From positions 64,001-83,514 of the IMG/VR virus record IMGVR_UViG_3300035499_000465: a DNA stretch of 19,514 nucleotides, one strand, 5' to 3'. The first letter of the stretch is position 1, and each line of letters starts with the position of its first letter. The DNA comes from a virus. The position numbers and the translations under genes were made by a program. The notes under the pieces are model-generated. The model saw only the letters and a program-made list of their open reading frames with translations, was not told where the DNA came from and did not search any database. Positions 1,085 through 17,618 of this stretch are shown in pieces.

Positions 1085-1543
1085 TTAAAAGTTTAAATTT
1101 AATGGCTCTTTTGATTTTTCTTGTTCAGCTTTTTGCGGTTGCGGCTCGCTCATCGGGGTCGTCGATGCCGTAGAAGGTTGACTTAAAAAACTTTTTAATT
1201 GAGTCATAGCTATCTCAAATTCTTCTCGTGTTACATAAGCAGAACTATTCAACGGTGGTTCAACAGGCATTTCTTTTAATTCGTACATGTTTAGTGTGGC
1301 TGTGCCATCCATATTTATCTGCTTTGTGTAAATTTTTTTATTTGCCAAATCTGGAAAATAAAAAATCGAACCATCAAAATCTATTGTAGCAGCTCTCGCT
1401 TCTTCAATAGATGATACAGGTCTACCTTTTACAGTCGCCATCATCTGAGGACGTATCATCGAAGAAGGACTCTGCATCTGATTTTGATAGTATTGAGTTT
1501 GAGGTTGCATTTGGTTATAATAGCTATTATTTGTAGGATACAT
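1085..1543 (-). CDS. hypothetical 152-aa protein. The N-terminus is Q/N/Y/P-rich and low-complexity; the central segment is more ordered (VKGRPVSSIEEARAATIDFDGSIFYFPD...).
   Basis: ATG at 1543..1541 with GAAAGGAAG about 9 nt upstream. It is the first gene after the 237-nt AT-rich intergenic region and terminator. Confidence 0.6.
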   Translation of the reverse strand: MYPTNNSYYNQMQPQTQYYQNQMQSPSSMIRPQMMATVKGRPVSSIEEARAATIDFDGSIFYFPDLANKKIYTKQINMDGTATLNMYELKEMPVEPPLNSSAYVTREEFEIAMTQLKSFLSQPSTASTTPMSEPQPQKAEQEKSKEPLNLNF

Positions 1544-1585
1544 AAAAAGTATACTTCCTTTCTGTAAGAAAATTTTTCTCTCTTT

Positions 1586-1620
1586 CTTACATTATATATT
1601 GATTTTTGAATGGGCAAAAT
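1586..1620 (-). promoter_or_regulatory. candidate sigma-A-type promoter for the 152/79/238-aa gene group. On the minus strand there is a perfect TATAAT (-10; plus coordinates 1591..1596) and a weak TTGCCC -35 (1612..1617), but the spacer is only 15 nt.
   Basis: Hexamers read directly from the sequence. The 1563..1799 spacer holds several other AT-rich near-matches, e.g. TATAAT at 1754..1759 with TTGTTT 16 nt upstream. This assignment is weak. Confidence 0.2.
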
Positions 1621-1779
1621 TTTAAAACAAAACCCTAAAATGTTGCATAAACTTTTCTCAAAAAATTTTAAATATCTTTATAAAATTTATACAAAAGTAT
1701 CAAATCGATCGGTTTAACGCGTTATATATTTTGTACACTTTGAACAAAAATATATTATAGATTTTTGTTAAAAATAAAC

Positions 1780-1811
1780 AAAAAAAAAAGGAACCTCAAT
1801 TAAGAGGTTCC
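1780..1811 (-). terminator. rho-independent terminator closing the radical-SAM cassette. The 8-bp stem ggaacctc (1790..1797) pairs with gaggttcc (1804..1811) across a 6-nt loop, and a run of 10 T follows on the transcribed (minus) strand (A-run 1780..1789 on plus).
   Basis: Perfect inverted repeat plus a U-tract, read directly. The TAA stop (1800..1802) and the last three codons of the 135-aa gene lie inside the hairpin. Confidence 0.7.
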
Positions 1812-2207
1812 CTTATTAACTTTTTGTTCATTTACTGTTGCTTCAATCATATTAGTAATATATATATCTAAATCTCCATAGGCTTCTTTAAGATAATTTT
1901 TAGCATCATCATTTAAAATACTTAATACTTTAGATAAGGTCTCTTGAAAAGCCGCTTCTTGAGCTTCTTTATCAAATGAGCCTTGTTGTTTTAAGCTATC
2001 TACATATGTTTGGTTTGTTGCAATTACGCAAGTCGTAATTGTATTGGTTAACATATCTGTATATTTTTTAGCTAATGCAGAATCAGATTCTGTATTAAAA
2101 GCTTCATTTTTAGCTTGAATGTATTTAACTAGATAAGTAGTTAAAACTCCAAGAAGAGGAATAATACATACCTCAAAAATTTTAGTTAATAATTCTAACC
2201 AATCCAT
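1800..2207 (-). CDS. 135-aa single-pass membrane protein. It has an N-terminal TM helix (LLTKIFEVCIIPLLGVLTTYLV) and a charged, helical C-terminal domain. It could be a holin-like protein or a cassette accessory or immunity protein.
   Basis: ATG at 2207..2205 with TAAGGAGT 5 nt upstream. It is the last gene before the terminator. The RBS overlaps the stop codon of the 317-aa gene, which suggests translational coupling. Confidence 0.6.
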   Translation of the reverse strand: MDWLELLTKIFEVCIIPLLGVLTTYLVKYIQAKNEAFNTESDSALAKKYTDMLTNTITTCVIATNQTYVDSLKQQGSFDKEAQEAAFQETLSKVLSILNDDAKNYLKEAYGDLDIYITNMIEATVNEQKVNKGTS

Positions 2208-2217
2208 TTTTTACTCC

Positions 2218-3171
2218 TTAATCCATAGAATAATAATTTTTAGGTGTATCAACTATTCCAACTCGAGAAGAATTTTTATCATTAATAAAAATTCCGTCTT
2301 GAGAAACAATTAAAGATAATACTTCAGCTTGACATTCTGGCTTAATAAAATAATATAAATATAATCCTAATAAATCTGAAGATGGAATAGTTCTTCCCTC
2401 TAATTTAAAATATTTATATCCCATCTTATTATATTCTTGCATTTCAGCTCTTGTTAAATTATTTCCTTTACCAAGAACGGAGGGGTGAGTAATATTCTCT
2501 TTAATTTTACATACACCTAAAACATTATAAGTATCTCGTAAATATGTAAGCTGAGCGATTCCAGTTTTTGCATAATGAGTTTTTCTAAAAGAGCAATTTG
2601 AACCGCAAATAGCATTACTTAAAAATTCGCATTTTCCACGCTTCTCTTTTGGAATTGCTTCCAATAATTCCTTATTTTTATTTAAATCATAATCTAAACA
2701 TACTTGATAATAATCTTTATCTAATTCTGCTAAGAAATCAGTAGGATTCGTTAAACGTTTAGTTGTTGAACTAATAATTTTATATCCAGGATAATTTTCT
2801 CTAATATATTGTTCCATAAGAGGAGAATTTACTACAACTTCATTACGGCCATTATCACAAACTTCTAACATTAAATTACCAAATCTGTCATCAAGATGCT
2901 CTTCTGTAATAACTGGATTAGTAAAAATTAATCTTAAAGCTACATTTCTATCTTTATAATCATTAACAACTTCTTCCATATATTCTCTAGTGCAATGCTC
3001 ATAACGAATAAAATTTCGTCCTCCATCCCAAATACAATAATGAAAATTACCAAAACAAGAACTAAAAGCTACATCATCATAAAAAAAATCTCTATGCTGT
3101 TCATATAAATTTAAAAAATATAAGTTCAAAGGTAAATGATCACTCGGTCCAGGTATATTAAAATATAACAT
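2218..3171 (-). CDS. 317-aa cytoplasmic protein, a paralogue of the adjacent 290-aa protein. It has a Cys-containing N-terminal segment (SSCFGNFHYCIWDGGR...EHC) and a C-terminal Cys cluster (CEFLSNAICGSNCSF...C). It may be a degenerate radical-SAM/SPASM-like auxiliary protein or a novel enzyme.
   Basis: ATG at 3171..3169 with AAGGAGG 9 nt upstream. It starts 2 nt after the stop of the 290-aa gene. The N-termini of the two proteins can be aligned (FNIPGP... versus YIIPNFF...). Confidence 0.65.
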   Translation of the reverse strand: MLYFNIPGPSDHLPLNLYFLNLYEQHRDFFYDDVAFSSCFGNFHYCIWDGGRNFIRYEHCTREYMEEVVNDYKDRNVALRLIFTNPVITEEHLDDRFGNLMLEVCDNGRNEVVVNSPLMEQYIRENYPGYKIISSTTKRLTNPTDFLAELDKDYYQVCLDYDLNKNKELLEAIPKEKRGKCEFLSNAICGSNCSFRKTHYAKTGIAQLTYLRDTYNVLGVCKIKENITHPSVLGKGNNLTRAEMQEYNKMGYKYFKLEGRTIPSSDLLGLYLYYFIKPECQAEVLSLIVSQDGIFINDKNSSRVGIVDTPKNYYSMD

Positions 3172-3172
3172 A

Positions 3173-4045
3173 TTATTTATCCTCCTTAATTGCGTTTAAA
3201 ACATCTTCATAAAATTTATAATATTCTATTTCAACATCTCTATTTTGTTCAAGTCTTTCTTGCGCCAATCCATTATGATTTGTGCTAAAACTATTTCCAG
3301 GAATTCTATCTTTCATTGCGGTTCCAAATAAAATATAGTCAGCATTATTTTTAACATAATTTATTTCAGCTATTGCCGTATCTACATCTTTTAGAGTTTG
3401 ACAATTCGGGCAACTAGAAAAAACACTTTGCTCTGAAAAATTTAATGTATTATTATTTTCAAGTTTTATACATCTTTTTAAATTTTTGCACTTATGGCAT
3501 ATTGCCATAGGAGAAAGTAAATAACATTTAAAGATATTTTTATTTTTTAATCCATAACAAGGATTTACATCTGTAGTAATAATACCTTTAATATTATTTG
3601 GATATTGGCTAATTAAAGAATTGATATCTTGAACAGAATGAAACATTGTATAATTTTGATGTAATACGATTTTAATTTTTGGATAAGTTTGTACTAAGTA
3701 TTCAATATATTCTGGAACACTGACTTCCCAATAAAAACGCGAATCTGTTGAAAATTTTTCTAAAATAACTTTTGCCATACAATTTTTGTAATCTGCCGGA
3801 ACAATATTCATATTACCATAATCTAATAAAATCATATCATCAATAATTTTATAAGCTTCCGCTCCGGCAATAAAATCTGGGTATAAAGAAATTTTTTCTC
3901 CTCTAATATTATTTAAGCTACCATTAAAATAAGAAAAAGAATATGTTCCTTGAACTCCAGCAAACTCATGAACTTGAATAAACTCATTAATTAATGCCAT
4001 ATTATATACATAGCTATCAAAAAAATTTGGTATAATATATTTCAT
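3173..4045 (-). CDS. 290-aa cytoplasmic protein, paralogue of the 317-aa protein. It lacks the CxxxCxxC motif but has a C-terminal Cys cluster (NPCYGLKNKNIFKC...CHKCKNLKRC...CPNC) that partially resembles a SPASM/twitch motif.
   Basis: ATG at 4045..4043 with GAAGGAGA 5 nt upstream. Sits immediately downstream of the internal promoter. The Cys spacing was read from the translation. Confidence 0.65.
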   Translation of the reverse strand: MKYIIPNFFDSYVYNMALINEFIQVHEFAGVQGTYSFSYFNGSLNNIRGEKISLYPDFIAGAEAYKIIDDMILLDYGNMNIVPADYKNCMAKVILEKFSTDSRFYWEVSVPEYIEYLVQTYPKIKIVLHQNYTMFHSVQDINSLISQYPNNIKGIITTDVNPCYGLKNKNIFKCYLLSPMAICHKCKNLKRCIKLENNNTLNFSEQSVFSSCPNCQTLKDVDTAIAEINYVKNNADYILFGTAMKDRIPGNSFSTNHNGLAQERLEQNRDVEIEYYKFYEDVLNAIKEDK

Positions 4046-4075
4046 AATAATCTCCTTCTTTTATATTATGAATAT

Positions 4076-4104
4076 ATTATACCAAAAAAAAGTTATTTCG
4101 TCAA
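4076..4104 (-). promoter_or_regulatory. internal sigma-A-type promoter with an extended -10. On the minus strand: TTGACG (-35; plus 4099..4104), a 17-nt spacer, then TGGTATAAT (extended -10; plus 4076..4084).
   Basis: Read directly from the 68-nt gap between the 233-aa and 290-aa genes. The -10 is perfect with the TG extension, the -35 matches at 5 of 6 positions and the spacing is ideal. It would drive the 290/317/135-aa genes. Confidence 0.45.
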
Positions 4105-4113
4105 GTTAAGTGC

Positions 4114-4815
4114 TTAATCAGCAAAATTTAAAGCTTCATCACCTTTGGTTAAAAGACCGCTATTAAAATCACCTTGAGCAAAATCTTGTAAATTTTCATC
4201 ATGAAGTCCTCTTTCAAGGGTATGATCTATAATTCTATTAATACAAACAAATAATTTATCTTGTTGATATAAAGACAATTCTGAACAATCAGTTAATCCG
4301 CAATAAAGTAAAACTGCGATTATCTCAGTATTAAAAATCCTATCTTCAGAAGATACAAAAAAATCATTTAAAATTTTTACAGCTTTTTCTGTTGTTGCTT
4401 CTGGAAAAGGAATTTCTTGTCCAATATAATGTTTAAATATTATATTTTTACAGACTTTAAATAAAGTTTGCTCATAAGTATCTTCTTCTTCAGATTCTGT
4501 TCTAACTTTTAATTCTTTTTCGATTGACGGATCATTATAAAAGCTATTAACAATATGAGCATTATATAATGAAATAAAATTTCTAAAATCAATAGAACGA
4601 ATTCTATCTTCTGGAGAAAATAATATGTAATAAATATAATAAATTAAAATTTCATTACATGGATGTAATACATCAATTACATATCCACTTTGAATAGAAC
4701 CTTTTAAATAAGATTCTACTTGTGGAATATATGAATAATTTTTATCCTCTATAATTGATTTACACATAGAATATAAAAACATATCATCAGAGCGTTGATA
4801 AGACATTTTTGACAT
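4114..4815 (-). CDS. 233-aa acidic cytoplasmic protein of unknown function, part of the radical-SAM cassette
   Basis: ATG at 4815..4813 with GAAAGGAA about 10 nt upstream. It overlaps the 3' end of the upstream radical-SAM gene by 29 nt, suggesting translational coupling. No recognisable motifs. Confidence 0.6.
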   Translation of the reverse strand: MSKMSYQRSDDMFLYSMCKSIIEDKNYSYIPQVESYLKGSIQSGYVIDVLHPCNEILIYYIYYILFSPEDRIRSIDFRNFISLYNAHIVNSFYNDPSIEKELKVRTESEEEDTYEQTLFKVCKNIIFKHYIGQEIPFPEATTEKAVKILNDFFVSSEDRIFNTEIIAVLLYCGLTDCSELSLYQQDKLFVCINRIIDHTLERGLHDENLQDFAQGDFNSGLLTKGDEALNFAD

Positions 4816-6157
4816 TTTTAATGTATTCCTTTCTCTCTTGATTTATTTTATGACTTTTTGCGACAATATCATAACAGTTATATTTTAATGCTACCTCATG
4901 GATAGATTTATAATAAACTTTATACATCTCACAAATTGTATCATTAGCTGTAAATAATTCTCTTTCATTTTCAAATTGAGATCCTAAACATCCTTTAGAA
5001 CAGAAAGATTTTAATTTACAAGCTGCACATTTCATAGTTGAACGATTTGGATTTAAAGTTTTAACTTTAAAAGCTAACATAGGTTTTTCAGCCTGCACCC
5101 CAGTAATTTTAGTATGATCTTCATCTGTTATCAATCTACCAAAAACAAAATTTTCATAACTAGTCCTATGACATGGAACTAATGCTAAATCTCCTAATCT
5201 CCAAATAGGTCCATTTTGAATAGAACAACTCATACTATGAACTGGACTAGGATAATCCAAAAGATCTGGTTGAATTCCTCCATGTTCAGAAAGAAACTGT
5301 TGCGGTCCACCAAACATTCCCAATGTGAAATCTTCAATATCTCCATGATAAATATCTTTAATATTTTTTTCTGCCATATATAATAAGAAGTCATGAAAGC
5401 TTTGAAGATTTTTTTCATCCCATTCATAAGGATCTCTTACATATAAGAACATTGGTAAATCTAAAACTTTTTTTCCATCTGGTCTAGTAATATACATATC
5501 ATATTTTATAATATTGTCAATCCACCAATCATAATTTTCTTTATAATTACGAACAAAATCAGCGGCAACCATAGGATGAAAAGTAAAATCATGTTTTTTA
5601 GCAAATTTAAAAATATTATCATAAAATTCATCAGACTTTCCATTACCATGATGATCTGGTCTAGTAAGCTCTTCCAAATTATTTGGCCCATCGATTGAAA
5701 AACTTAAATATAATGGACATTTTATTTTTTGTAATTTTTCTAACCAAATTTCAACTCTTTGAGTTTTTTCTTCATCTTTAATAAAAGTTCCATTTGTTGG
5801 AACTGAAATCTCTCTATATACATCTGGATAATGAGTTACTTTAAAATCATAAATAATTTGTAAAATGTCCTCCCAAAAGGGAAGCGCAAAAAATTCTCCT
5901 GAAAAGATATTAAAAGTGGTGTAATCATATCCTTCATCATATAAATATTGTAATAATAATTTAAAATTTGTCAAAATTAAATCTTTTTTATTATACTGCG
6001 GTGGATATAATTCTTTACCATGCTTCATTAAATAACAATATTCACATTTTTGATTACAACTTGAAGAAATAATAAATTCTACCATTGGAGCATTTTTACA
6101 ATATCGATCTAAAAAACTATTAAATAAAATATTTTGTTCTTCTTGATAAGTTGCCAT
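4787..6157 (-). CDS. radical SAM enzyme with a C-terminal SPASM domain (456 aa); a peptide/protein-modifying maturase of the anSME/sactisynthase-like family
   Basis: The [4Fe-4S]/SAM motif CNQKCEYCY (CxxxCxxC) lies near residue 34 and a GGE-like SGE is downstream. The C-terminus carries the canonical SPASM signature CAACKLKSFCSKGC (Cx2Cx5Cx3C), with an upstream C..G....C segment and a trailing Cys. ATG at 6157..6155 with AAAGGAGG upstream. It starts 1 nt after the stop of the 480-aa gene. Confidence 0.85.
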   Translation of the reverse strand: MATYQEEQNILFNSFLDRYCKNAPMVEFIISSSCNQKCEYCYLMKHGKELYPPQYNKKDLILTNFKLLLQYLYDEGYDYTTFNIFSGEFFALPFWEDILQIIYDFKVTHYPDVYREISVPTNGTFIKDEEKTQRVEIWLEKLQKIKCPLYLSFSIDGPNNLEELTRPDHHGNGKSDEFYDNIFKFAKKHDFTFHPMVAADFVRNYKENYDWWIDNIIKYDMYITRPDGKKVLDLPMFLYVRDPYEWDEKNLQSFHDFLLYMAEKNIKDIYHGDIEDFTLGMFGGPQQFLSEHGGIQPDLLDYPSPVHSMSCSIQNGPIWRLGDLALVPCHRTSYENFVFGRLITDEDHTKITGVQAEKPMLAFKVKTLNPNRSTMKCAACKLKSFCSKGCLGSQFENERELFTANDTICEMYKVYYKSIHEVALKYNCYDIVAKSHKINQERKEYIKNVKNVLSTL

Positions 6158-6160
6158 GTA

Positions 6161-7603
6161 TTATAAAACCTCCTTTACTTTGTATTCTCTTGCCACTCTA
6201 TCCAGCTCTGAAACAACTATATCCATTGCCCCATTATAAAAAAGTGGAATTTCTAGACAATTTCTAGTTGTCCAAGAGCCATTCATAATATAATTATCTT
6301 GTAAGCAAATAGAATTTTCCATAAAGGCAGGAAGTGTTTTTTCTATTTCAGCAATAGATGTATATTTAGGATCGATTAATCCTGCTTTTGCATATTCTCG
6401 AACAAATAAAATTAAATCTGTATATAAAATTTGATTTGGAGAAGTTTCAAAAGGAACCATCATATTATGTGCTTGGCGCATTTCTTCTGGGGTATATAAC
6501 CAATCTTTTGTATTATGCGCTCCGAAATATTTATCTGATAATCCATTTATTGAACCTTGTTTCTGAACATTATTAGCATATTCAACATATTCATCAAATA
6601 ATCCTCTGTGACACATAGTAAACATTCCTTTTGGAATTGGAACTATATTTCCAGTAAAAGATCCACATCCTCCACCACATTTAGGGTTACGATAACTTTT
6701 TCCTGCTTCTTCAAGGCTTCTATCCACTTGTACAGTTCCACAACGTTTACAAGAACTACGAGAGCTTAAACTTGTTAACCCGGTTATCGCAAGAGGAATT
6801 AATGTAACATCAGATCTCCAACTTTCACAAGTTTCTTGGATATATTTTTGACTATCTAAAATATTCTGATTAATTTTAGCATATGTATAGCCATCTTCTT
6901 TAGTCCATTCTGATGGACTAGCACAATTAAATACACTATTATGATAATTCCATTTTGCATTATTTTCTTTTTGCACTTGATATAATTCAGTGTCAAAAAA
7001 TGTATACCATTTAATACATTTTTCAGGCGTATCTAGAAAATGCATTGTTTCTTTTGATAAAGTTGGTTTAGTATGAACTGATAATATAATTTTTGAAGTA
7101 TCATAATCAATATCACATAAATCTCTAAAATTTTTTAAAAATTTTTCAGTTGTACCTTTACCTCTACCGAAATCATTCATTTCTGGATAGCCATCAATGG
7201 AAATTTGTAAATCAAAATTAAAATATACATTTCCATTATAATATTTCCCAATTTCTTTTAATAAATGCTCAATTATTTTAGCTTGATTTGGGATTGTAAA
7301 ATTAGTAGAAGTCATAATTTTATTAAAATTTGGAAATGCATCAAAATAGGCTTTTATATGGTCTGTAAAACGCTCCATATGTAAAAATGGTTCTCCTCCC
7401 CAAAGAGTAATTCCGTCTATTGTATTTCGAAGCTCTGGATCATAATCTAAAACTTGTTTAATATATTGATCATTTGCAAAATCTTGCTCAAGATCTTTAT
7501 CGATCTGAGCAAGTCCACCTGCGGCATCTTTGCAAATATAACAATATCCACAATTTAAATTACACAAAGCTGTTGTAAATAAAGTCATATTAGAAAAATT
7601 CAT
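6161..7603 (-). CDS. second, distinct radical SAM enzyme (480 aa) with a SPASM/twitch-like C-terminal Cys cluster; partner maturase
   Basis: CNLNCGYCY (CxxxCxxC) at residues 14..22 closely resembles the CNLKCTYCFY-type signature of anaerobic sulfatase-maturase-like SPASM enzymes. The GGEP motif LWGGEPFL is present. The C-terminal half has clustered Cys (C...G....C, CKRC, CGGGC, CHRG). ATG at 7603..7601 with AAGGAGA 5 nt upstream. Confidence 0.85.
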   Translation of the reverse strand: MNFSNMTLFTTALCNLNCGYCYICKDAAGGLAQIDKDLEQDFANDQYIKQVLDYDPELRNTIDGITLWGGEPFLHMERFTDHIKAYFDAFPNFNKIMTSTNFTIPNQAKIIEHLLKEIGKYYNGNVYFNFDLQISIDGYPEMNDFGRGKGTTEKFLKNFRDLCDIDYDTSKIILSVHTKPTLSKETMHFLDTPEKCIKWYTFFDTELYQVQKENNAKWNYHNSVFNCASPSEWTKEDGYTYAKINQNILDSQKYIQETCESWRSDVTLIPLAITGLTSLSSRSSCKRCGTVQVDRSLEEAGKSYRNPKCGGGCGSFTGNIVPIPKGMFTMCHRGLFDEYVEYANNVQKQGSINGLSDKYFGAHNTKDWLYTPEEMRQAHNMMVPFETSPNQILYTDLILFVREYAKAGLIDPKYTSIAEIEKTLPAFMENSICLQDNYIMNGSWTTRNCLEIPLFYNGAMDIVVSELDRVAREYKVKEVL

Positions 7604-7650
7604 ATTAATCTCCTTTTTCTCTTTTTATTTATTTAATTAATTATTTATTT

Positions 7651-9075
7651 TTACATATCAATACCTTCAACTTTAAAGGAATCGTAAAAAGTAACAAAAA
7701 ATCCACTAAAATTAGTTGGACAATGCGCTGACTTATTGCTTCCAAAGAAAGTCCCAAAATATGTAGTACAATAACTTCCAAAAGTATAATTTACTGCGGA
7801 ATGATATGTACTAAAAGTTGTAGTTGCAAAATTACTACAATTTCCAGCAAAATTTGTCGTACAAAAATCTCCATAAGTATAATTAACATTTGTAAAAAAT
7901 GTAGCATACTTAGGACTACAATAACTACTACAATGAGTTGCAAAAAAAGTATAATTTACACCATTAAAGAAAGTAGCATATCTAGGATTACAATAACTAC
8001 TACAATGTGCTGCAAAATAAGTATAATTTACACCATTAAAGAAAGTAGCATACTTAGGATTACAATAATTACTACAATGAGTTGCAAAATAAGTATAATT
8101 TACACCATTAAAGAAAGTAGCAAAATTTGTTCCAAAGTTAGTTGCATTTTTAGAAGAGTGAAAAGTTGCATTTTTAGAAGAATGATTTGTGTTACAAACT
8201 GAAATATGATTCGTATCATCTCTGCGGCAACTACTACTATAACTAAAACAATTCCATACTCCAGAATAATAAGTAGAATTTTTAGATTTAAAAAATGTTC
8301 CATGAAAAGTTCCATGAAAAGTAGCATGCTTAGAAGAATGTAATGTATTACAAAAACCACAGAAATTCCCGCAATGAGCTGCAAATGTATAATTCACTCC
8401 ACCAAAAAATGTATTACAAAAACCGCAATAATTTCCACAATGAGCTGCAAATGTATAATTTACTCCACCAAAAAATGTACTATAATTTCCTGTGCAATAA
8501 TTTGAACAAAGAGCAGCAAATGTATAATTTACACTATTAAAAAAAGTAGCATAACGTGCATCACAAAAGCTACTACAATGAGTAGCAAAAAATGTTGAAT
8601 CATGACTACTAAAATAAGTATAATTAACACTAGAGAAAACTGTTGTACATGTTTCTGTAGTGTGACTAGTATTAAAAGCTCCAAAATAAGTCGCGCAGAG
8701 AGGAGTATTCTGCCTATAAGATGTGAAATTATTTGAATTATAAGATCGACAAAGGCTCTCCATATACCCAATCGTTTTTTCAATTATAGAAACATTAGTA
8801 TATGCATTAATAACAACTCCTGCAGTAGCAGATGGCGTTCCAAAAGTTGTAATATTAGCACTATTTAAAAAAGATACTTTATCTTTAGTGTCACTAATTT
8901 GACTAAAAACATTAGTAACTCCAGTTGCAGGGGTAATTGAACTCCCCTGCAAACTTGGAACAGTTAATGACGCAACTCCAGCTGTTGAACGCATTGTATT
9001 TAATCTATTATAAAAATCTGAAATAGTGGACGCAGTAATTGAATTACCTTTATAAAATACTGTTCTTGTCGCCAT
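7651..9075 (-). CDS. 474-aa Cys-rich tandem-repeat protein. It has 26 Cys, 17 His, and many Tyr/Phe/Asn/Thr. About ten 24-aa repeats of the form TFFNGVNYT[YF]FA[AT]HC[SG][NS][YF]C[NS]P[KR]YA follow a 108-aa Ser/Thr-rich, Cys-free N-terminal region. It is the putative substrate or precursor of the adjacent radical-SAM enzymes.
   Basis: ATG at 9075..9073 (RBS GAGAGGG, spacer about 10). The repeats and residue counts were read from the translation; three consecutive units (aa 319..390) are nearly identical. No N-terminal hydrophobic signal. It lies immediately upstream of two radical-SAM/SPASM genes in one operon. Confidence 0.75.
   Translation of the reverse strand: MATRTVFYKGNSITASTISDFYNRLNTMRSTAGVASLTVPSLQGSSITPATGVTNVFSQISDTKDKVSFLNSANITTFGTPSATAGVVINAYTNVSIIEKTIGYMESLCRSYNSNNFTSYRQNTPLCATYFGAFNTSHTTETCTTVFSSVNYTYFSSHDSTFFATHCSSFCDARYATFFNSVNYTFAALCSNYCTGNYSTFFGGVNYTFAAHCGNYCGFCNTFFGGVNYTFAAHCGNFCGFCNTLHSSKHATFHGTFHGTFFKSKNSTYYSGVWNCFSYSSSCRRDDTNHISVCNTNHSSKNATFHSSKNATNFGTNFATFFNGVNYTYFATHCSNYCNPKYATFFNGVNYTYFAAHCSSYCNPRYATFFNGVNYTFFATHCSSYCSPKYATFFTNVNYTYGDFCTTNFAGNCSNFATTTFSTYHSAVNYTFGSYCTTYFGTFFGSNKSAHCPTNFSGFFVTFYDSFKVEGIDM
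7743..8628 (-). repeat. in-frame tandem coding repeats with a period of about 72 bp (24 codons) inside the Cys-rich gene. The most conserved block is 7906..8121.
   Basis: Recurrent DNA strings such as gtataatttacaccattaaagaaagtagcata recur at about 72-bp spacing. These explain the spurious repetitive antisense ORFs at 7801..8202 and 8343..8540. Confidence 0.7.
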
Positions 9076-9100
9076 TCTGGCTTAGCCCTCTCTTTCTTTT

Positions 9101-9424
9101 TTAATAAGTAAATACAAAATTTGGATATGGTTCACTGTACTCCTCTGCAGTTGTCATTCTCATCGCAATATTATCTAATCTAGTATATTTACTACTGTTA
9201 AAAATAATCCTTCCATCTTCTTCAATCACTTGAATAGATGAAATAGAATCTTTTACAAAATAAGGAACAAATTTTTCTACAATTTCTAGATTATATAAAT
9301 CTGCACCTACAACTGTTAGTATAAATCTAACCCCTTTTTCTGGTTCATCTGGGGCGATCCTAATATCTTCAGCGAAGTTGCGAATATTAATAATTAATTC
9401 TTCATTATTAAGATTTAATATCAT
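9101..9424 (-). CDS. 107-aa acidic hypothetical protein. It is the first gene of the cassette and may be a small accessory or chaperone-like protein.
   Basis: ATG at 9424..9422 with GGAGG 7 nt upstream. It sits directly downstream of a strong promoter-like element and 25 nt upstream of the repeat-protein gene. Confidence 0.55.
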   Translation of the reverse strand: MILNLNNEELIINIRNFAEDIRIAPDEPEKGVRFILTVVGADLYNLEIVEKFVPYFVKDSISSIQVIEEDGRIIFNSSKYTRLDNIAMRMTTAEEYSEPYPNFVFTY

Positions 9425-9450
9425 ATTAAAACCTCCATTGATTTATTTTT

Positions 9451-9479
9451 ATTATATCATAAAATTTAGACAAAGTCAA
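9451..9479 (-). promoter_or_regulatory. sigma-A-type promoter with an extended -10, in the gap between the tail-fibre stop and the 107-aa gene. On the minus strand: TTGACT (-35; plus 9474..9479), a 17-nt spacer, then TGATATAAT (TGn + TATAAT; plus 9451..9459).
   Basis: Read directly. The -35 matches at 5 of 6, the -10 is perfect with the TG extension and the spacing is ideal. It would give the cassette transcription independent of the late structural operon. Confidence 0.45.
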
Positions 9480-9483
9480 ATCT

Positions 9484-12400
9484 TTATTTAACTTTAATCC
9501 AAATACGACCATTAACTTTTATATTTCCAGTGCCCCAAACTTTATAATCTGGAATTTCAGACACCGTACCAATAATACGATCAGGATATTCTTTAATTTC
9601 TTCTCTTGTCATTAAAGAAACTGTTCCATCAGGACCGGAACAAACCGCATCTCCTGGTTTATATTTTTCTTTATCTTCATATGGATAAGCTAAAACTCTT
9701 CCCGATACAGCCAAAGGAGTTTTACATCGATTAGTTTCTCCAATAGCAAAACCATAAGTATCAGATATAATATTTGCTCCAGGCTGAAGTCTTTTTGTTG
9801 AATATTTAAGAGCTCCATGTCCAGTTTCTATTACACATCTTCCCGCTTCATCTTTAGCTTCAACATATCTAAACTCCGCATAATCATTCCATACTGCTCC
9901 ATATACTTTACTACCAGTTATTGTTCCACTAGCAGTTATATTAGATGAAGTATTCATAGTTCCATTAAAATAACTTGTACCATTTACATATAATTTATAA
10001 CTTGGAGTAGTTCCACTTGAAACCAATTTATTAATATAAACACAATTACTCTTTATCTGTAACGCTGGATTATCAGATCGTGCATTACCATCACTATCAA
10101 GATACCATTGACTGCCACCTTCAACTCTATTTCCAGTCCAGAAAATAAATGATGTAACAGATTGATTATTTACAAAGTTTAAAGCTTCATTACCACCGGT
10201 TCCATAATAAATATATGAATTATATGTACTTCCAGAAGGTCTAAATTCAATAGCTCTTATATTAGATGCATATATGGTTGTATTTGTATAATATGAGTAT
10301 CCGCTAACTTGTAAAGAAGGGACTATTGTAGTTTGAGTATTTGAAGAAGTTGTAATCAAATATGGCGAACTTAATGAAGTTGTGTTAATACCGATTTGAC
10401 TACTTGACATATAAATTGAGCCTGCTGCAGATACTGCATTTACTCCACTAAAATAAGCAGCTCGATTTGCAGTTCCACTATTAAGCGTTGAACTTAATGA
10501 ATAAGAACATTTTGTAATAGTACCAGAACTTAAATACACTGGGGCTGTACTAGATCCAACTGTTGAACTACTTTCTGTTGGAACTCCTGCACTTAAATAC
10601 CATAACTTTGTCCCACTACCTTTGGTCGATGTATATGCGCTAACTGTGGTTCCTGCAGAATAATAAGCTAATGAATTAACAGCTCCACTATTGACAGTTG
10701 CATTTAAACTATAAGTGCAAGCTGTTGGAACTCCTGCATTCCAATAGATTGGATTTGTAGCACTTCCATAAGAATCTGCTGTTCCAACATATAATTTACT
10801 CCATCTGTTTCCGCTTACACCAAGACTTTGAGCATTTGTATTTGTTGCTTCAGCTTTTATAGGAACTATATTACCAGATGTAGTTATTTGAGCACCAATT
10901 CTATTGGCGATAGTATCTGCATTTGCTTCTAAATTTATCGAGCCGTCAGATAATAAATATAGTGTTTCAGTTCCCGCGCTAACTAAACTTTGCATATTAC
11001 TAGCACTTTCACCTGCTCCGACTATAGTCATACCACCACCGCCGATAGAAATTCCATTTCCATAAGCATCAGAAGTATTATCCATAAATCGAATCATAGA
11101 TAAATGTGCATTTGTTCCATAATAATAAATATCGCCTTTTAAAGCAGTAGTACCATTAACATATAATTTATATCCTGTTACTGATCCGCCAATCATCAAG
11201 TTACTTGTTACTTGTAAATATCCACTTGATGATTCAATAATTCTACTTGTATAATCAGATGTACTATTACTAAAATGAAAATCTATATATGGGTTTGGGG
11301 CAGATAATTCAATGAAACCGCTTCCAACATATGTTCCCGCTACTCCGGAAACTCCTGCGGATGTAAAACTTGTACTACTAGAAACAAATAATACATTTGT
11401 ATATGTATTACTCCAATGTAAACTAGCTGTTCCTAAGGTATAACTACCATTACTAGCTGGCTGAATTATTTGTGAAGTTAAAGTATTATTTAATGTTTTA
11501 GCTCCATAAATAGTTTGAGTAGTATTAGTAATTAATCCTGTATGAGAAGAGTCATGAGCTGGAATAGTAACAGTTGTTATTTCTGAACCATTTTTAGCTT
11601 TACCATTTACAATTAAACTTGTTCCATTTGAAGTATTCAACCCTAATGTTGCAATATATCCTGCAACAATACTATTTCCATTAGCATCATTTGTTGCTCT
11701 ATCAGCTAAATAACTTCTATATGCAATATTTGTATTTGATATGGTCTGAGTTATAGTTCCAAGAGTTGTTGTAAATCCAATGCTCCATCCAGTCGCCCAT
11801 TTATCTTGACTATAATTAGTGTATCCAACAGTAAGATCTGAGATAGAAACCTGCGGATAATTCCATGTAGTTGTAGATTCACCAATATAAATTGCGCATT
11901 TACTTCCATCATGTCCAAATCTAACATTTAAATTACTTAAACCATATTCATATTTACCAATAGCTTGCGCAAATACGTTATACCAGCTTGGACTATCACT
12001 ACTATTATAATTATATCCACCAACTAAATATTCCACAGATCTTCCAGTTGAATAATCATAAATAGATACCTTAAAACGCATCATAGTACTAGTCCATGAT
12101 TGCGGCAAAGTAACTTTTAAGTATCCTGTTGCTGTTGAAGAAGTTGTGGCATAACTTCCGCCATCTGGAAAGGCAATATAATAATTAGATTTTCCGACTG
12201 CGGTTGTAGTTAAGTTACCATTTAACCACATTTTACCACTTGTGTTAATAGAAGCAACTCCACCAACACTGTTACGTCTAAATACCCATCCTCTATTATC
12301 TGTATTGCTCATGGTTATATAAGTAGCCCAATCGCCAGTTACATATCCATGTGTACCTGCGCTTGAAGTTTGTCTAAAAGTAATACCATAGTTTATAGGA

Positions 12401-14847
12401 TCATCAGAACCATATAACCCAATACCATAAGCACTTCCACTACCAGTCGTATTTACATTTAGTTGATTTTGAAGTTTTAAACTACATAAATAGCTAGTTC
12501 CAGTATTTATATAGTAAGAACCTGCAGATCCAACATAAATGGTTCCACCTTTAACCTGAAGATTTCCTCCAGTATATACAACTCCACCATTATTATTCAA
12601 ATAAAGTGTACTAGTAGTGGTAGCACTTGCTTTAGCCATAATTTCATTTCCATCTAAAGCTAAATGTGTTCCAGAAATATCTCCAATTAAAACCACTCCA
12701 GATCCGCTCGTACTTGCCTCTGCATCAGTTGTATTACTGAATATTGTAACACCAGAAAAAGTTTTCTTTCCTGCAAAAGTTTGTTCTCCAGTAGAGATTA
12801 AACCTGCGGCACTTGAGGTTGCCATTGGAATTGAAATGGTTGCTTGAACACTTCCACTTGCATATTTACTTTGAATCTTATATGTCGTTCCTGTGGATTC
12901 AGATTGCGCGATTGATGTTAGATATTTGCCATCTGCTGTACTTTTACTATATATATAATCAGTATAATTTCCAGAATGTAATACGGTATAATTAGTTGCT
13001 GTAGAACCCCATGTACGATTGGGAGTAAAATATAATACTCCAGTATTCGCCCACAAAGAATCTACCGTAGTAGAAGTATTGTAGAATTGAATACCTTCAG
13101 CAGCCGAATCACACAAATCTCCAAACTGAATTTGGTTTACATTATAAATATTACTGTTGTTAGCATTAAGTGCTCCACTATTTAATGCATCTGTATATTG
13201 ACTACCTTTTAAAGAGATAACCCCTGTCATCGTTCCGCCTGCAAGAGGCAAGAATGAAGGTTTTATAGTAGTCGTAGTTCCAGTTGCACCGGATTCGCTA
13301 TATCTAACTAAATTAATTGAGGTTCCCGCACTATCAAGAGTAATTGTAGTATTTGGTCCAAGAAAACTTGGTTTTCCAGTGATATTAGACCAAGCTACTG
13401 AAGCTGCAACTCCAGCCGCAAATACTTCATAACCATCTTCGCTTGTTAATTTAGTTTGATCTTTTACAAAGTACATTTTATTGGTTGATGTAACTTTAAC
13501 CACATCACCATTTTGAACACTTGATGTAGTTAATGCCAGACGAGCTGTGTCATCTGCAACTACAACTAATCTTTCTAATGCACCCTGTGGAATATATTTT
13601 ATATCAATTAAATTATTTGAATCTAATGGGGCAAATTTTCCAATAGTAGTTGTAGTTCCATTACCAGTTGTTTGCTCTAATTGGTATTCAGTTCCACTAG
13701 AAATTTTAACACTTTTTAAATAAGTTGATGTAATTGTATTTCCTGAAGCATCTGCAGTTGCCTTAGCAGCAGTTCCTGAGATACTAATACCCCAAGTTCC
13801 AGAGGCTCCAGTTCCATCTTTTTTAACTGTATAAGAAGTATAATTATTTGAAGTTAATAAATGCTCCCAACTTCCCCAAGTTGTATCTCCAGTTGATGTA
13901 CGATGATGTAAACCGTTTGAATCAAAAGCCAATTCATGGGCTGGGCCGCCAGTCCAGTCAGATCCAGAAGCATAAGGTCTAAAAGTCATAACCCCAGAAT
14001 AAGAGCTAGATAAACCTGTTACACTTGCCGCTTTAAAATTAAATTGTATGCCATTTGTTTTTGCATTTAAGCTACTAGGATTAATTACATCATTTCTAGT
14101 ATCTGGACATATTAAATAAGAAGCATAAGTCGCAGTATCTGCATTACCATTTAAGGTTGCCTTAATAGTAGAAGGTAATTTTAAAGTTACATTTGCACTA
14201 CCATTTACTCCAACACCAGAACTAGTATTACTTGCATCGCTATCTTGAATATAAAATAATCTACTTGTAGCCCATGTGCTTGCGGTTGATGCATTTCCCA
14301 CAAAAGTATTTGCAACAACTTTACCATTGTCTCTAATCGCCATTAAGGTTGTCCAAGAACTACCAGAATCTTCGCTTTGTTGAAATTCAAAAACTGAATC
14401 ATCAGTTGTGCTATTATCTACATTTATAATTCTTTGCCAATATAAACCAGAATTCCATGTAATTCCGCTTGCCGTTCCATCAGCAGAGAACTTAAGAGGT
14501 CCACTAAGGGTACCTCCAGTAAGTGCCAAATCTTCGGACGCGTGTCCTGTTAAGCTAGCTTTTATAGTAGAAGGCAGTTTTAAAATAACGTCATTAGTAC
14601 CATTAACTAATGTCGATGGCCCAGAGTTAGTTCCACTATTATCTTTAACAGTGAAATTTCTTGCCGTTATCCATGCATCTGCTAAAGTGCTCATTTTTAC
14701 ACGAGTGTTTGAATCTGTATCGAAATAAATAGAGCCCGTATAACCAGAATTACTGTCTCCACTAATGGCAAAATATACTTTACCAGCTTCTTTAGAACTT
14801 GGTAATTTTGACTCTAAACCTGTAGTAAATTTTACATTATTAGCCAT
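9484..14847 (-). CDS. giant tail fibre / receptor-binding fibre protein (1787 aa). Low-complexity S/T/G/N/Y-rich beta-type composition, with internal modular duplications and a non-repetitive C-terminal globular domain.
   Basis: A single uninterrupted ORF in structural-gene context, with the composition and length typical of phage fibres. Internal duplications: ...ILKLPSTIKASLTGHA versus ...TLKLPSTIKATLNGNA, GYKLYVNGT twice, and AGVPT.C.YSL..T.NSG modules. ATG at 14847; GGAGG upstream with an unusually long spacer of about 14 nt. Confidence 0.8.
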   Translation of the reverse strand: MANNVKFTTGLESKLPSSKEAGKVYFAISGDSNSGYTGSIYFDTDSNTRVKMSTLADAWITARNFTVKDNSGTNSGPSTLVNGTNDVILKLPSTIKASLTGHASEDLALTGGTLSGPLKFSADGTASGITWNSGLYWQRIINVDNSTTDDSVFEFQQSEDSGSSWTTLMAIRDNGKVVANTFVGNASTASTWATSRLFYIQDSDASNTSSGVGVNGSANVTLKLPSTIKATLNGNADTATYASYLICPDTRNDVINPSSLNAKTNGIQFNFKAASVTGLSSSYSGVMTFRPYASGSDWTGGPAHELAFDSNGLHHRTSTGDTTWGSWEHLLTSNNYTSYTVKKDGTGASGTWGISISGTAAKATADASGNTITSTYLKSVKISSGTEYQLEQTTGNGTTTTIGKFAPLDSNNLIDIKYIPQGALERLVVVADDTARLALTTSSVQNGDVVKVTSTNKMYFVKDQTKLTSEDGYEVFAAGVAASVAWSNITGKPSFLGPNTTITLDSAGTSINLVRYSESGATGTTTTIKPSFLPLAGGTMTGVISLKGSQYTDALNSGALNANNSNIYNVNQIQFGDLCDSAAEGIQFYNTSTTVDSLWANTGVLYFTPNRTWGSTATNYTVLHSGNYTDYIYSKSTADGKYLTSIAQSESTGTTYKIQSKYASGSVQATISIPMATSSAAGLISTGEQTFAGKKTFSGVTIFSNTTDAEASTSGSGVVLIGDISGTHLALDGNEIMAKASATTTSTLYLNNNGGVVYTGGNLQVKGGTIYVGSAGSYYINTGTSYLCSLKLQNQLNVNTTGSGSAYGIGLYGSDDPINYGITFRQTSSAGTHGYVTGDWATYITMSNTDNRGWVFRRNSVGGVASINTSGKMWLNGNLTTTAVGKSNYYIAFPDGGSYATTSSTATGYLKVTLPQSWTSTMMRFKVSIYDYSTGRSVEYLVGGYNYNSSDSPSWYNVFAQAIGKYEYGLSNLNVRFGHDGSKCAIYIGESTTTWNYPQVSISDLTVGYTNYSQDKWATGWSIGFTTTLGTITQTISNTNIAYRSYLADRATNDANGNSIVAGYIATLGLNTSNGTSLIVNGKAKNGSEITTVTIPAHDSSHTGLITNTTQTIYGAKTLNNTLTSQIIQPASNGSYTLGTASLHWSNTYTNVLFVSSSTSFTSAGVSGVAGTYVGSGFIELSAPNPYIDFHFSNSTSDYTSRIIESSSGYLQVTSNLMIGGSVTGYKLYVNGTTALKGDIYYYGTNAHLSMIRFMDNTSDAYGNGISIGGGGMTIVGAGESASNMQSLVSAGTETLYLLSDGSINLEANADTIANRIGAQITTSGNIVPIKAEATNTNAQSLGVSGNRWSKLYVGTADSYGSATNPIYWNAGVPTACTYSLNATVNSGAVNSLAYYSAGTTVSAYTSTKGSGTKLWYLSAGVPTESSSTVGSSTAPVYLSSGTITKCSYSLSSTLNSGTANRAAYFSGVNAVSAAGSIYMSSSQIGINTTSLSSPYLITTSSNTQTTIVPSLQVSGYSYYTNTTIYASNIRAIEFRPSGSTYNSYIYYGTGGNEALNFVNNQSVTSFIFWTGNRVEGGSQWYLDSDGNARSDNPALQIKSNCVYINKLVSSGTTPSYKLYVNGTSYFNGTMNTSSNITASGTITGSKVYGAVWNDYAEFRYVEAKDEAGRCVIETGHGALKYSTKRLQPGANIISDTYGFAIGETNRCKTPLAVSGRVLAYPYEDKEKYKPGDAVCSGPDGTVSLMTREEIKEYPDRIIGTVSEIPDYKVWGTGNIKVNGRIWIKVK

Positions 14848-17539: not shown

Positions 17540-17571
17540 TAATATAGTCCAATCCTTTCTATAATATTTTC

Positions 17572-17618
17572 GAGGGTGACATTTGCCACCCTCTTGTTCT
17601 TTCAAAATATTTTGAAAG
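17572..17618 (-). promoter_or_regulatory. two adjacent palindromes in the leader of the 643-aa gene. The first is a GC-rich hairpin: gagggtg (17572..17578) pairs with caccctc (17587..17593) around an 8-nt loop. The second is a perfect 20-bp AT palindrome, ctttcaaaatattttgaaag (17599..17618).
   Basis: Read directly. They are not followed by a U-tract on the minus strand, so they are more likely an operator or RNA-structure element than a terminator. Confidence 0.3.

Follow-up and report, generated by a model that had tools for sequence, protein, structure and literature searches.

A 19,514-nucleotide (nt) stretch of the viral record IMGVR_UViG_3300035499_000465 in IMG/VR (record positions 64,001 to 83,514; hereafter the window, in whose coordinates all features are given) encodes a repeat-rich protein of 474 amino acids (aa) beside two radical S-adenosylmethionine (radical-SAM) enzymes, and raises the question of whether this protein is what the enzymes modify, by which chemistry, and what becomes of the product. 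Bacteria are well known to mature peptides with radical-SAM enzymes. That a repeat protein of full size can be matured in this way was demonstrated only recently, in the HXS defence system. Here, we conclude that the 474-aa protein (7651..9075, minus strand, ATG start, stop codon at 7651-7653) is in all likelihood a radical-SAM substrate, encoded in a conserved gene cassette that is essentially confined to phages. Judged by sequence, this cassette appears to be a new variant of radical-SAM protein or peptide maturation, outside every named family tested.

The cassette reads, in the direction of transcription, 107-aa small protein, 474-aa repeat protein, two radical-SAM enzymes (rSAM-1 and rSAM-2), and proteins of 233, 290 and 317 aa. 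An earlier note, made from the letters of the window alone, had recognized the small protein, the presumed precursor and the two enzymes in this order, which stands, and had missed the three further conserved genes downstream, including a pair related to peptidase family U32. Its proposal that the repeat protein is the substrate of the adjacent enzyme pair is very probably right, since all relatives examined show the small protein, the repeat protein and rSAM-1 in this order, with rSAM-2 next wherever the contig continues. A search with rSAM-1 yielded 77 homologous clusters, many on contigs of 100-250 kb, and the cassette was recovered in more than 12 loci, mostly phage contigs of this size. 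Locus L002 has the small protein, the repeat protein and rSAM-1, and L007-L013, L019 and L033 have rSAM-2 as well. Across these syntenic loci, the identity of rSAM-1 falls from 62% to about 28-30%, the small protein measures 104-124 aa and the repeat protein 170-422 aa; nearer relatives add proteins of about 225, about 260 and about 320 aa, while distant branches retain only the first four genes. The cassette directly follows fibre-like genes in the window, L002, L012 and L033, whereas in phages of ~195 kb it lies away from fibre genes, among those for NrdD, dUTPase and RuvC. The adjacency of repeat protein and enzyme thus survives relocation into the neighbourhood of replication genes.

Among 185,579 cellular species genomes, only two full-length relatives of rSAM-1 were found (30% identity), both on small contigs of metagenome-assembled genomes (MAGs), and because of this near-absence we regard the system as essentially phage-specific. 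The Clostridia MAG contig L033 itself carries phage genes: fibre genes are followed by the four-gene core and then by transmembrane proteins and a GH25-like lysin. An anaerobic setting is suggested by NrdD, the ribonucleotide reductase of the anaerobic type, and an adjacent small radical-SAM protein, presumably its activase, both encoded on the same phage contigs as the cassette. Our literature searches on phage-encoded radical-SAM/SPASM precursors returned no description of this cassette.

The family of the repeat protein emerged only when 1.84 billion cluster representatives were scanned in full with HMMER, and it is small, with 44 clusters. A word-indexed protein search, in which the repeat words saturate the candidate list, had retrieved one relative and then five. 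The first of these, P0001, is encoded on a 4.5-kb contig together with a fibre-like gene, a 112-aa gene and an rSAM-1 homologue (49% identity). No match to the 474-aa protein was found in Pfam, NCBIfam, PHROGs or PADLOC, and neither this protein and rSAM-2 (tblastn) nor the whole window (megablast) matched any of 50,697 GenBank phage records. Scans of IMG/VR with single queries (the repeat protein, its two-sequence alignment, or rSAM-1 alone) returned a truncated, 98% identical copy or nothing. Over its first 776 nt, the repeat gene of a 97-99% identical strain variant on a 76-kb IMG/VR contig (L001) carries 22 nucleotide differences from the window copy but only four residue changes, so that the reading frame is under purifying selection. 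Together with the existing homologues, this rules out a non-gene or an assembly artefact of the repeats. Plus-strand open reading frames inside the repeats (7801-8202 and others) were dismissed as by-products of the repeat sequence.

Alignments resolve the family into a conserved N-terminal domain, an unalignable core and a conserved C-terminus. In the window protein, the N-terminal domain (aa 1-118; 8722..9075, minus strand) is predicted by AlphaFold2 to be a helical bundle, and it ends in the near-invariant pair E106 and C109. Its motifs are K-T-V-x-[YF], D-F-Y-N-R-L-N-x-x-R and I-E-K-x-I-G-x-L-E-x-x-C; R24, E99, E106 and C109 are at least 90% conserved, and the domain is homologous to that of the distant L033 copy (hhalign probability 96.5%). 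The C-terminal motif, H-S-x-F-K-V-E-G-[IV]-D, corresponds to a strand at aa 465-474 (ending in FKVEGIDM; 7654..7683, minus strand), in which V469 and E470 are invariant. With a 41-sequence alignment, AlphaFold2 places three helices at residues 15-31, 49-66 and 91-123 of the N-terminal domain (predicted local distance difference test, pLDDT, 70-95) and gives the last decapeptide a pLDDT of 88, while residues 119-463 have no confident structure (about 35); with six sequences the model was unusable (33.8). As residues 5-6 and 468-469 form the only strands predicted, they most likely pair in the modelled structure, docking the C-terminus on the N-terminal domain. The idea that the N-terminus is a leader agrees with this leader-like layout, in which conserved ends surround a hypervariable core. 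Fold searches with the N-terminal domain gave only generic helical bundles and nothing informative. One of the non-significant fold matches (E 5.0), BFVD entry A0A8S5UTL8, is a protein of 200 aa from an uncultured myovirus; annotated as 'Six-cysteine peptide SCIFF', it may belong to a wider class of phage radical-SAM substrates.

The cores share a composition rather than a sequence. Aromatic residues plus His account for 15-29%, Asn for 12-18%, Ser for 10-17% and Thr for 7-14%, with hardly any Asp, Glu, Leu, Ile, Met or Gln. Cysteine is not conserved: it ranges from 1 to 7%, reaches only 1-3% in most homologues, and is most abundant in the window protein. The repeat type changes from member to member, from T-F-H-S-[SA]-K in L007 and N-R-S-x-[FY]-T...N-x-S-N-F-S-G in P0079 to N-Y-A-N-K-S in L033 and S-H-R-S in P0121. 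Pooled over 33 cores, N-x-[ST] occurs 471 times against 271 expected (z>2 in 21 of the 33), and its aromatic subset N-[FYWH]-[ST] 156 times against 51 (z>2 in 20). The pattern [FYWH]-x-S is likewise in excess (327 observed, 217 expected), with Ser at +2 from an aromatic residue reaching z>2 in seven of eight proteins. These statistics fit the earlier idea of aromatic-x-x sites of the cyclophane type; they speak of enrichment, not of modification. H-x-S is more frequent than expected in the pool (93 against 52) but individually significant in only 6 of the 33 cores, C-x-P-[KR] occurs four times (three of them in three recently duplicated units of the window protein), and Cxx(x)C is not enriched family-wide (19 against 13). 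Motifs built on Cys are particular to the lineage of the window. N-glycosylation was considered as the source of the N-x-S/T excess and ruled out, as no copy of the cassette contains a glycosyltransferase.

The window protein illustrates how such a core is built. It consists of 14.6% T, 12.2% F, 12.0% S, 10.5% N, 7.8% Y and 5.5% C, and its core is weakly basic (isoelectric point, pI, 8.3). As the earlier note had it, the first 108 residues are free of Cys (the first of the 26 is residue 109) and there is no signal peptide: a hydrophobic N-terminus is absent, as is any transmembrane segment (highest 19-aa Kyte-Doolittle hydropathy 0.92). The repeats described there are real, yet they number nine rather than about ten and measure 22-32 aa, only units 5-7 being exactly 24 aa long. 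Each unit is anchored by VNYT, an instance of the family-wide N-aromatic-[ST] site. Block A (units 1-4, aa 145-243; 8347..8643, minus strand) contains two 22-aa units with HCGN[YF]CGFC, units 3 and 4, which are 91% identical in protein and 90% in DNA. Block B comprises the three near-identical consecutive units 5-7, with the consensus TFFNGVNYT[YF]FA[TA]HCS[NS]YC[NS]P[KR]YA; they lie at aa 320-391 (7903..8118, minus strand), one residue away from the first placement at aa 319..390, and share 83-87% of their residues and 91-95% of their nucleotides. Between the blocks lies the His-rich centre that the earlier note had described (aa 244-319; 8119..8346, minus strand), which holds seven of the 17 His residues, short FHG and HSSKNAT repeats, and the family's central aromatic element, here YYSGVWNCFSY; homologues carry H-x-Y-W-[LV]-F-[HN] at the matching position. 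The degenerate units 8 and 9 (aa 392-464; 7684..7902, minus strand) complete the core. Tandem Repeats Finder recovered the same arrays as the VNYT layout: a 72-nt period in 3.5 copies (89% matches, 7873-8122), a 66-nt period in 2.8 copies (85% matches, 8342-8529), and 12-nt and 24-nt repeats in the His-rich centre. Every codon difference among units 5-7 is nonsynonymous (three to four per pair, zero synonymous), which hints at diversification of the units; with about five variable codons this is not significant.

Motif counts in this core were compared with composition-preserving shuffles. All nine H-x-S triplets reported earlier are present, against 1.9 expected, and four of them are H-C-S within the duplicated Cys units. 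C-x-P-[KR] occurs three times against 0.0 expected (CNPKY, CNPRY and CSPKY), C-x3-C seven times against 1.8 and N-x-[ST] 21 times against 12.7, while HCxx[YF]C is found six times, likewise more than in the shuffles, and VNYT nine times. Because the units arose by duplication, these counts are not independent events.

Both enzymes have the cofactor-binding signature of the superfamily. rSAM-1 (480 aa; 6161..7603, minus strand) matches the Pfam Radical_SAM domain (E 4.5e-9), carries CxxxCxxC at C14/C18/C21 and three further invariant cysteines (C313, C331 and C433), and resembles twitch-domain models. rSAM-2 (456 aa; 4787..6157, minus strand) carries CxxxCxxC at C34/C38/C41 and a complete seven-Cys SPASM motif (C311, C329, C377-x2-C380-x5-C386-x3-C390, C409), invariant in 10 relatives, and scores 23.8 bits against the SPASM-domain model TIGR04085, just below its cut-off of 27. 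Because the first cluster motif stands almost at the start of each enzyme, neither has room for an N-terminal RiPP recognition element (RiPP, a peptide made on the ribosome and modified after translation). Their best profile matches are maturases that cross-link peptides or proteins (YhhB, DynA, PapB, GggB, QhpD and anSME), at 20-54 bits against cut-offs of 170-650. Peptide-maturase models match all 41 rSAM-1 members scanned, all far below cut-off, and the QhpD model matches all 10 rSAM-2 relatives through the SPASM region. The triceptide maturase models reach 47.1 bits for YhhB (cut-off 445), 33.1 for GrrM/OscB (310), 23.2 for XyeB (450) and 16.3 for FxsB (370), and the thioether maturase models 43 and 39.7 for PapB (340) and 54 for GggB (650). 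PADLOC returned only generic viperin-core matches to the two enzymes.

The remaining cassette genes are conserved in position. The 107-aa protein (9101..9424, minus strand) has counterparts of 104-124 aa in L002, L007-L013 and L033 and is 43% identical to the L002 copy over 44 aa; searches of Pfam, NCBIfam, PHROGs and PDB with this protein and its family gave no match. The 233-aa protein (4114..4815, minus strand), with an invariant YYIYY motif, has orthologues in the same position in L007-L009, L012 and L013; it matched no family, its PDB-sequence profile search was empty, and hhalign did not confirm homology to the 113-aa gene product that follows rSAM-2 in L033 (E 0.76). The 317-aa protein (2218..3171, minus strand; invariant C46, C158, C189, C193 and C221) appears to be a distant relative of the peptidase-U32 family (PF01136), whose model matches four of five orthologues (best E 1.3e-5). 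The 290-aa protein (3173..4045, minus strand; invariant C183, C186, C192 and C212) is its paralogue by hhalign (probability 96.8%, E 2.8e-10, 214 columns), and itself found nothing in the Pfam scan. Profile searches against PDB sequences gave no match for either family. A pair of neighbouring U32-like paralogues, both about 290-320 aa long and with four or more invariant cysteines, recalls UbiU/UbiV, two U32-family proteins that each hold a 4Fe-4S cluster through conserved cysteines and form a heterodimeric, O2-independent hydroxylase (PMC6747719), with prephenate as oxygen donor (PMC10990095). In contrast to UbiU/UbiV, the phage pair has a very weak sequence signal and is linked to a protein substrate and radical-SAM enzymes, not to quinone, tRNA or rRNA pathways, so that a UbiU/UbiV-type activity can be suggested only by analogy.

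Taken together, these data suggest the following scheme, which we favour on balance as a whole, its chemistry and the late-infection fate included. The N-terminal domain, probably clasped by the C-terminal strand, would serve as the recognition handle, in the role of a RiPP leader, possibly aided by the 107-aa and 233-aa proteins. rSAM-1, with one auxiliary cluster, and rSAM-2, with a SPASM domain and two, would act by hydrogen abstraction and form many short-range cross-links between side chains along the repeats. An aromatic-to-side-chain linkage of the cyclophane type, at aromatic-x-Ser or N-aromatic-S/T sites, is the chemistry that would fit the whole family best, and we put it forward tentatively. 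In the Cys-rich lineage of the window, thioether links at the HCxx[YF]C sites are possible as an additional modification. In the branch with the U32-like, Fe-S-type paralogues, a further oxygen-independent modification could follow, possibly hydroxylation of aromatic residues. Since no protease or exporter is encoded in the cassette and the protein is conserved at both ends, the product probably stays full-length and heavily cross-linked. Encoded between the fibre genes and the holin gene, it would be produced late in infection and act either on the virion or, once the cell has lysed, outside it. Candidates for its biological role are a cross-linked material of the virion or the extracellular space and an exclusion factor like that of HXS.

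One alternative to this scheme is a thioether chemistry. If sactipeptide- or ranthipeptide-type cross-links at HCxx[YF]C and CGFC were the conserved chemistry, the 26 cysteines of the window protein, the recurrent HCxx[YF]C and C-x3-C spacings and the presence of PapB and GggB among the top profile matches would be explained; the same enzymes are kept, however, where cores are almost free of Cys (P0079 and L009), and the scarcity of Cys in most cores and the unremarkable family-wide count of Cxx(x)C make this chemistry unlikely as more than a lineage-specific addition. The non-conserved core cysteines and a maturase below the family cut-off also set the system apart from sactipeptides and ranthipeptides. 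A quinohemoprotein amine dehydrogenase offers a related precedent: the cross-links of its small gamma subunit, QhpC, are thioethers from Cys to Asp or Glu. As with QhpD and QhpC, a SPASM enzyme would here put several intramolecular cross-links into a protein that is retained rather than cleaved to a peptide, but Cys and acidic residues are both scarce in most phage members. A comparison with HXS (TIGR03976-03979; PMC13128918) leads to another alternative, in which a radical-SAM-matured His-x-Ser effector at the cell envelope would block incoming phage DNA and so cause superinfection exclusion. The two systems share a four-part architecture: two radical-SAM enzymes, a small protein and, as a protein-sized substrate, a protein with repeats that exceeds 200 aa. 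His-x-Ser-type sites are present, nine of them in the window protein; the SHRS repeats of distant relatives (L010/P0121 and P0122) recall the modified SHRSS site of HxsA, and HxsB or HxsC models give weak matches to 7 of 10 rSAM-2 and 20 of 41 rSAM-1 relatives. Yet HxsA is defined by a signal peptide and a peptidoglycan-binding domain (PMC13128918), and the 474-aa protein, in which the Pfam scan detected no such domain, has neither. It also found no match in NCBIfam at E<=0.1, in a library that includes TIGR03977 and TIGR03978 and in which the presence of TIGR03979 (HxsA) was not confirmed. The enzymes, which the earlier note had proposed to compare with HxsB and HxsC, score 14.6 bits (cut-off 370) and 18.5 bits (267.9) with the respective models, lower than with many other maturase models, and are not equivalogs of either. 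The 107-aa protein lacks the HxsD motifs LYW and LLNDYxLRE and had no NCBIfam match (HxsD is TIGR03976). The usual order D-B-C-A of the hxs genes differs from that of the phage cassette, which has up to three extra conserved genes, the U32-like pair among them. The phage core is weakly basic and dominated by Phe, Tyr, Asn, Ser and Thr instead of basic H-x-S repeats, with H-x-S enriched in few cores. Finally, HXS is 99.7% confined to Pseudomonadota (PMC13128918), whereas the sole cellular-genome match with the cassette is the Clostridia contig with phage genes. Membership in the HxsA family, as first suspected, is thus not borne out, and an HXS-like role appears rather improbable.

A further alternative is a structural protein of low complexity or rich in beta strands that stays unmodified, for instance an accessory fibre or an adhesin, with the radical-SAM enzymes acting elsewhere. 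It would agree with the position of the gene after fibre-like genes in four loci, with the way Asn, Ser, Thr and aromatic residues alternate at period 2, as is typical of beta strands, and with fibre-like features in more distant relatives, for example the S74-type chaperone end of the L029 protein. We regard it as improbable, given that the repeat gene still adjoins rSAM-1 where the cassette has moved among replication genes, that the core has no confident predicted fold, and that the cassette conserves no other candidate substrate. Least credible of all is the conversion of the C-x-P-[KR] sites to formylglycine, as in sulfatases, by an anSME-like enzyme: the anaerobic sulfatase maturase model is indeed the second-best match of rSAM-2, but its 46.8 bits lie far below the cut-off of 349, and the motif is limited to the three recently duplicated units and to 4 sites in the 33 family cores. 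The resemblance to the sulfatase motif noted at the outset dissolves on inspection, as the regular expression [CS]-x-[PA]-x-R finds nothing in the 474-aa protein.

Several observations also weigh against a cross-linked, full-length radical-SAM product. Both the modification and its chemistry are matters that we infer throughout; the enzymes score 5-10 times below every family cut-off, and the profile scan of 41 rSAM-1 and 10 rSAM-2 members fails to separate cyclophane-forming from thioether-forming enzymes. The motif z-scores are inflated, the repeat units being duplicates of one another, and the alternation in the cores (NxS, SxN, SxF and TxF enriched; SxS, FxF and NxF depleted) would fit plain beta-strand repeats too. 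The window copy of the 317-aa protein reaches only 15.4 bits with PF01136, below the cut-off of 22.4. Timing and site of action are uncertain because the cassette of the ~195-kb phages lies among replication genes, not structural or lysis genes.

With these reservations, the closest known system to the proposed cross-linked substrate is, by analogy in substrate logic, that of the triceptides, which are made by the 3-CyFE radical-SAM/SPASM enzymes XyeB, GrrM/OscB, FxsB, YhhB, HaaB and HtkB (PMC11499958). Shared traits are repeated aromatic-x-x core sites, a SPASM maturase, and a leader/core organization with a hypervariable core, and models of cyclophane formers (YhhB, DynA and AmcB) weakly match most or all members. 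The phage substrate differs in its size of 278-474 aa, its folded N-terminal domain of ~118 aa and its conserved C-terminal strand, and the phage system in having two maturases. All enzyme scores are far below the cut-offs, which places the enzymes outside the characterised 3-CyFE families, and the cross-link itself is putative.

The cassette would bring the maturation of whole proteins into phages, on a scale of at least 77 enzyme clusters and 44 substrate clusters and on contigs of up to about 250 kb. The clasped architecture of the substrate is unusual, and the U32-like branch would tie proteins of the oxygen-independent hydroxylase type to protein modification. The system offers a compact seven-gene operon for new cross-linking chemistry together with a natural library of hypervariable cores, and it poses a new question of phage biology, namely why large phages of anaerobes spend about 7 kb on one modified protein. 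A bolder reading, which we consider doubtful, would make the cassette the first pathway encoded by a virus to convert an entire protein, under anoxic conditions, into an aromatic polymer that is densely cross-linked and possibly hydroxylated. In that case, the hypervariable repeat core of ~350 aa would be modified by the two radical-SAM enzymes and the UbiU/UbiV-like pair through an N-aromatic-S/T chemistry unlike that of any characterised RiPP class; the resulting material, an adhesive, a fibre or a barrier that resists proteases, would be used on the virion or set free at lysis.

The surroundings of the cassette bear on when it might be expressed. All long open reading frames of the window lie on the minus strand. 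Upstream, in the direction of transcription, are genes for proteins of 515, 73, 665, 195 and 1787 aa, the last fibre-like, and then the cassette; the 317-aa gene is followed by a holin gene and three further small genes. The 665-aa protein (15608-17605, minus strand) has weak matches to Hoc-like/Ig head-decoration proteins, and the 1787-aa protein (9484-14847, minus strand) is without any PHROG match. The gap between the 1787-aa gene and the cassette contains a promoter-like site, TTGACT-17-TATAAT with an upstream TG (9451..9479, minus strand), which matches 11 of 12 positions, joint best in 1500-9700, as a sigma-70-like consensus match only; sites of this kind are no more numerous in the region than expected by chance. 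A second site with TG and 11 of 12 positions (4076-4104, minus strand) lies in the gap before the 290-aa gene. The 47 nt that separate the stop codon of the repeat gene from the rSAM-1 ribosome-binding site are filled by a (TTTA)x6.8 tract (7624-7650).

Directly downstream of the cassette stands the holin gene (1800..2207, minus strand; phrog_13712, E 4.5e-32), which is not part of the maturation machinery and probably belongs to the same late transcription unit as the cassette. A terminator-like hairpin of 11 pairs with a T-run (1787-1814, minus strand) lies at its end. The phrog_13712 holin and a phrog_21718 protein both follow the cassette in the window (1085-2207, minus strand) and in L007 (14218-15197), and because the context of the two phages is otherwise different, the conserved block extends past the seven cassette genes. 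L010 and L033 encode a lysin within a few genes after the cassette. Position and the promoter- and terminator-like sites are, as sequence features, suggestive of late expression in these lineages.

Two further observations concern the phages that carry such genes. In L010 and L012, nearly every gene has in-frame stops under translation table 11, and the database translation of P0121 (from L010) has Gln at these positions, which indicates phages with a recoded stop codon. Loci L026-L032, more distant phage loci from IMG/VR, pair one or two radical-SAM enzymes with small proteins that share a helix of the form I-x-A-x-D-I-x-x-L...I-N and have tails rich in S-Y-[ND]-G, C-x-C-N or His-x-x repeats, and may represent a far wider class of radical-SAM-modified phage proteins. 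The 222-aa protein of L029 ends in an S74-type intramolecular chaperone, typical of tail fibres.

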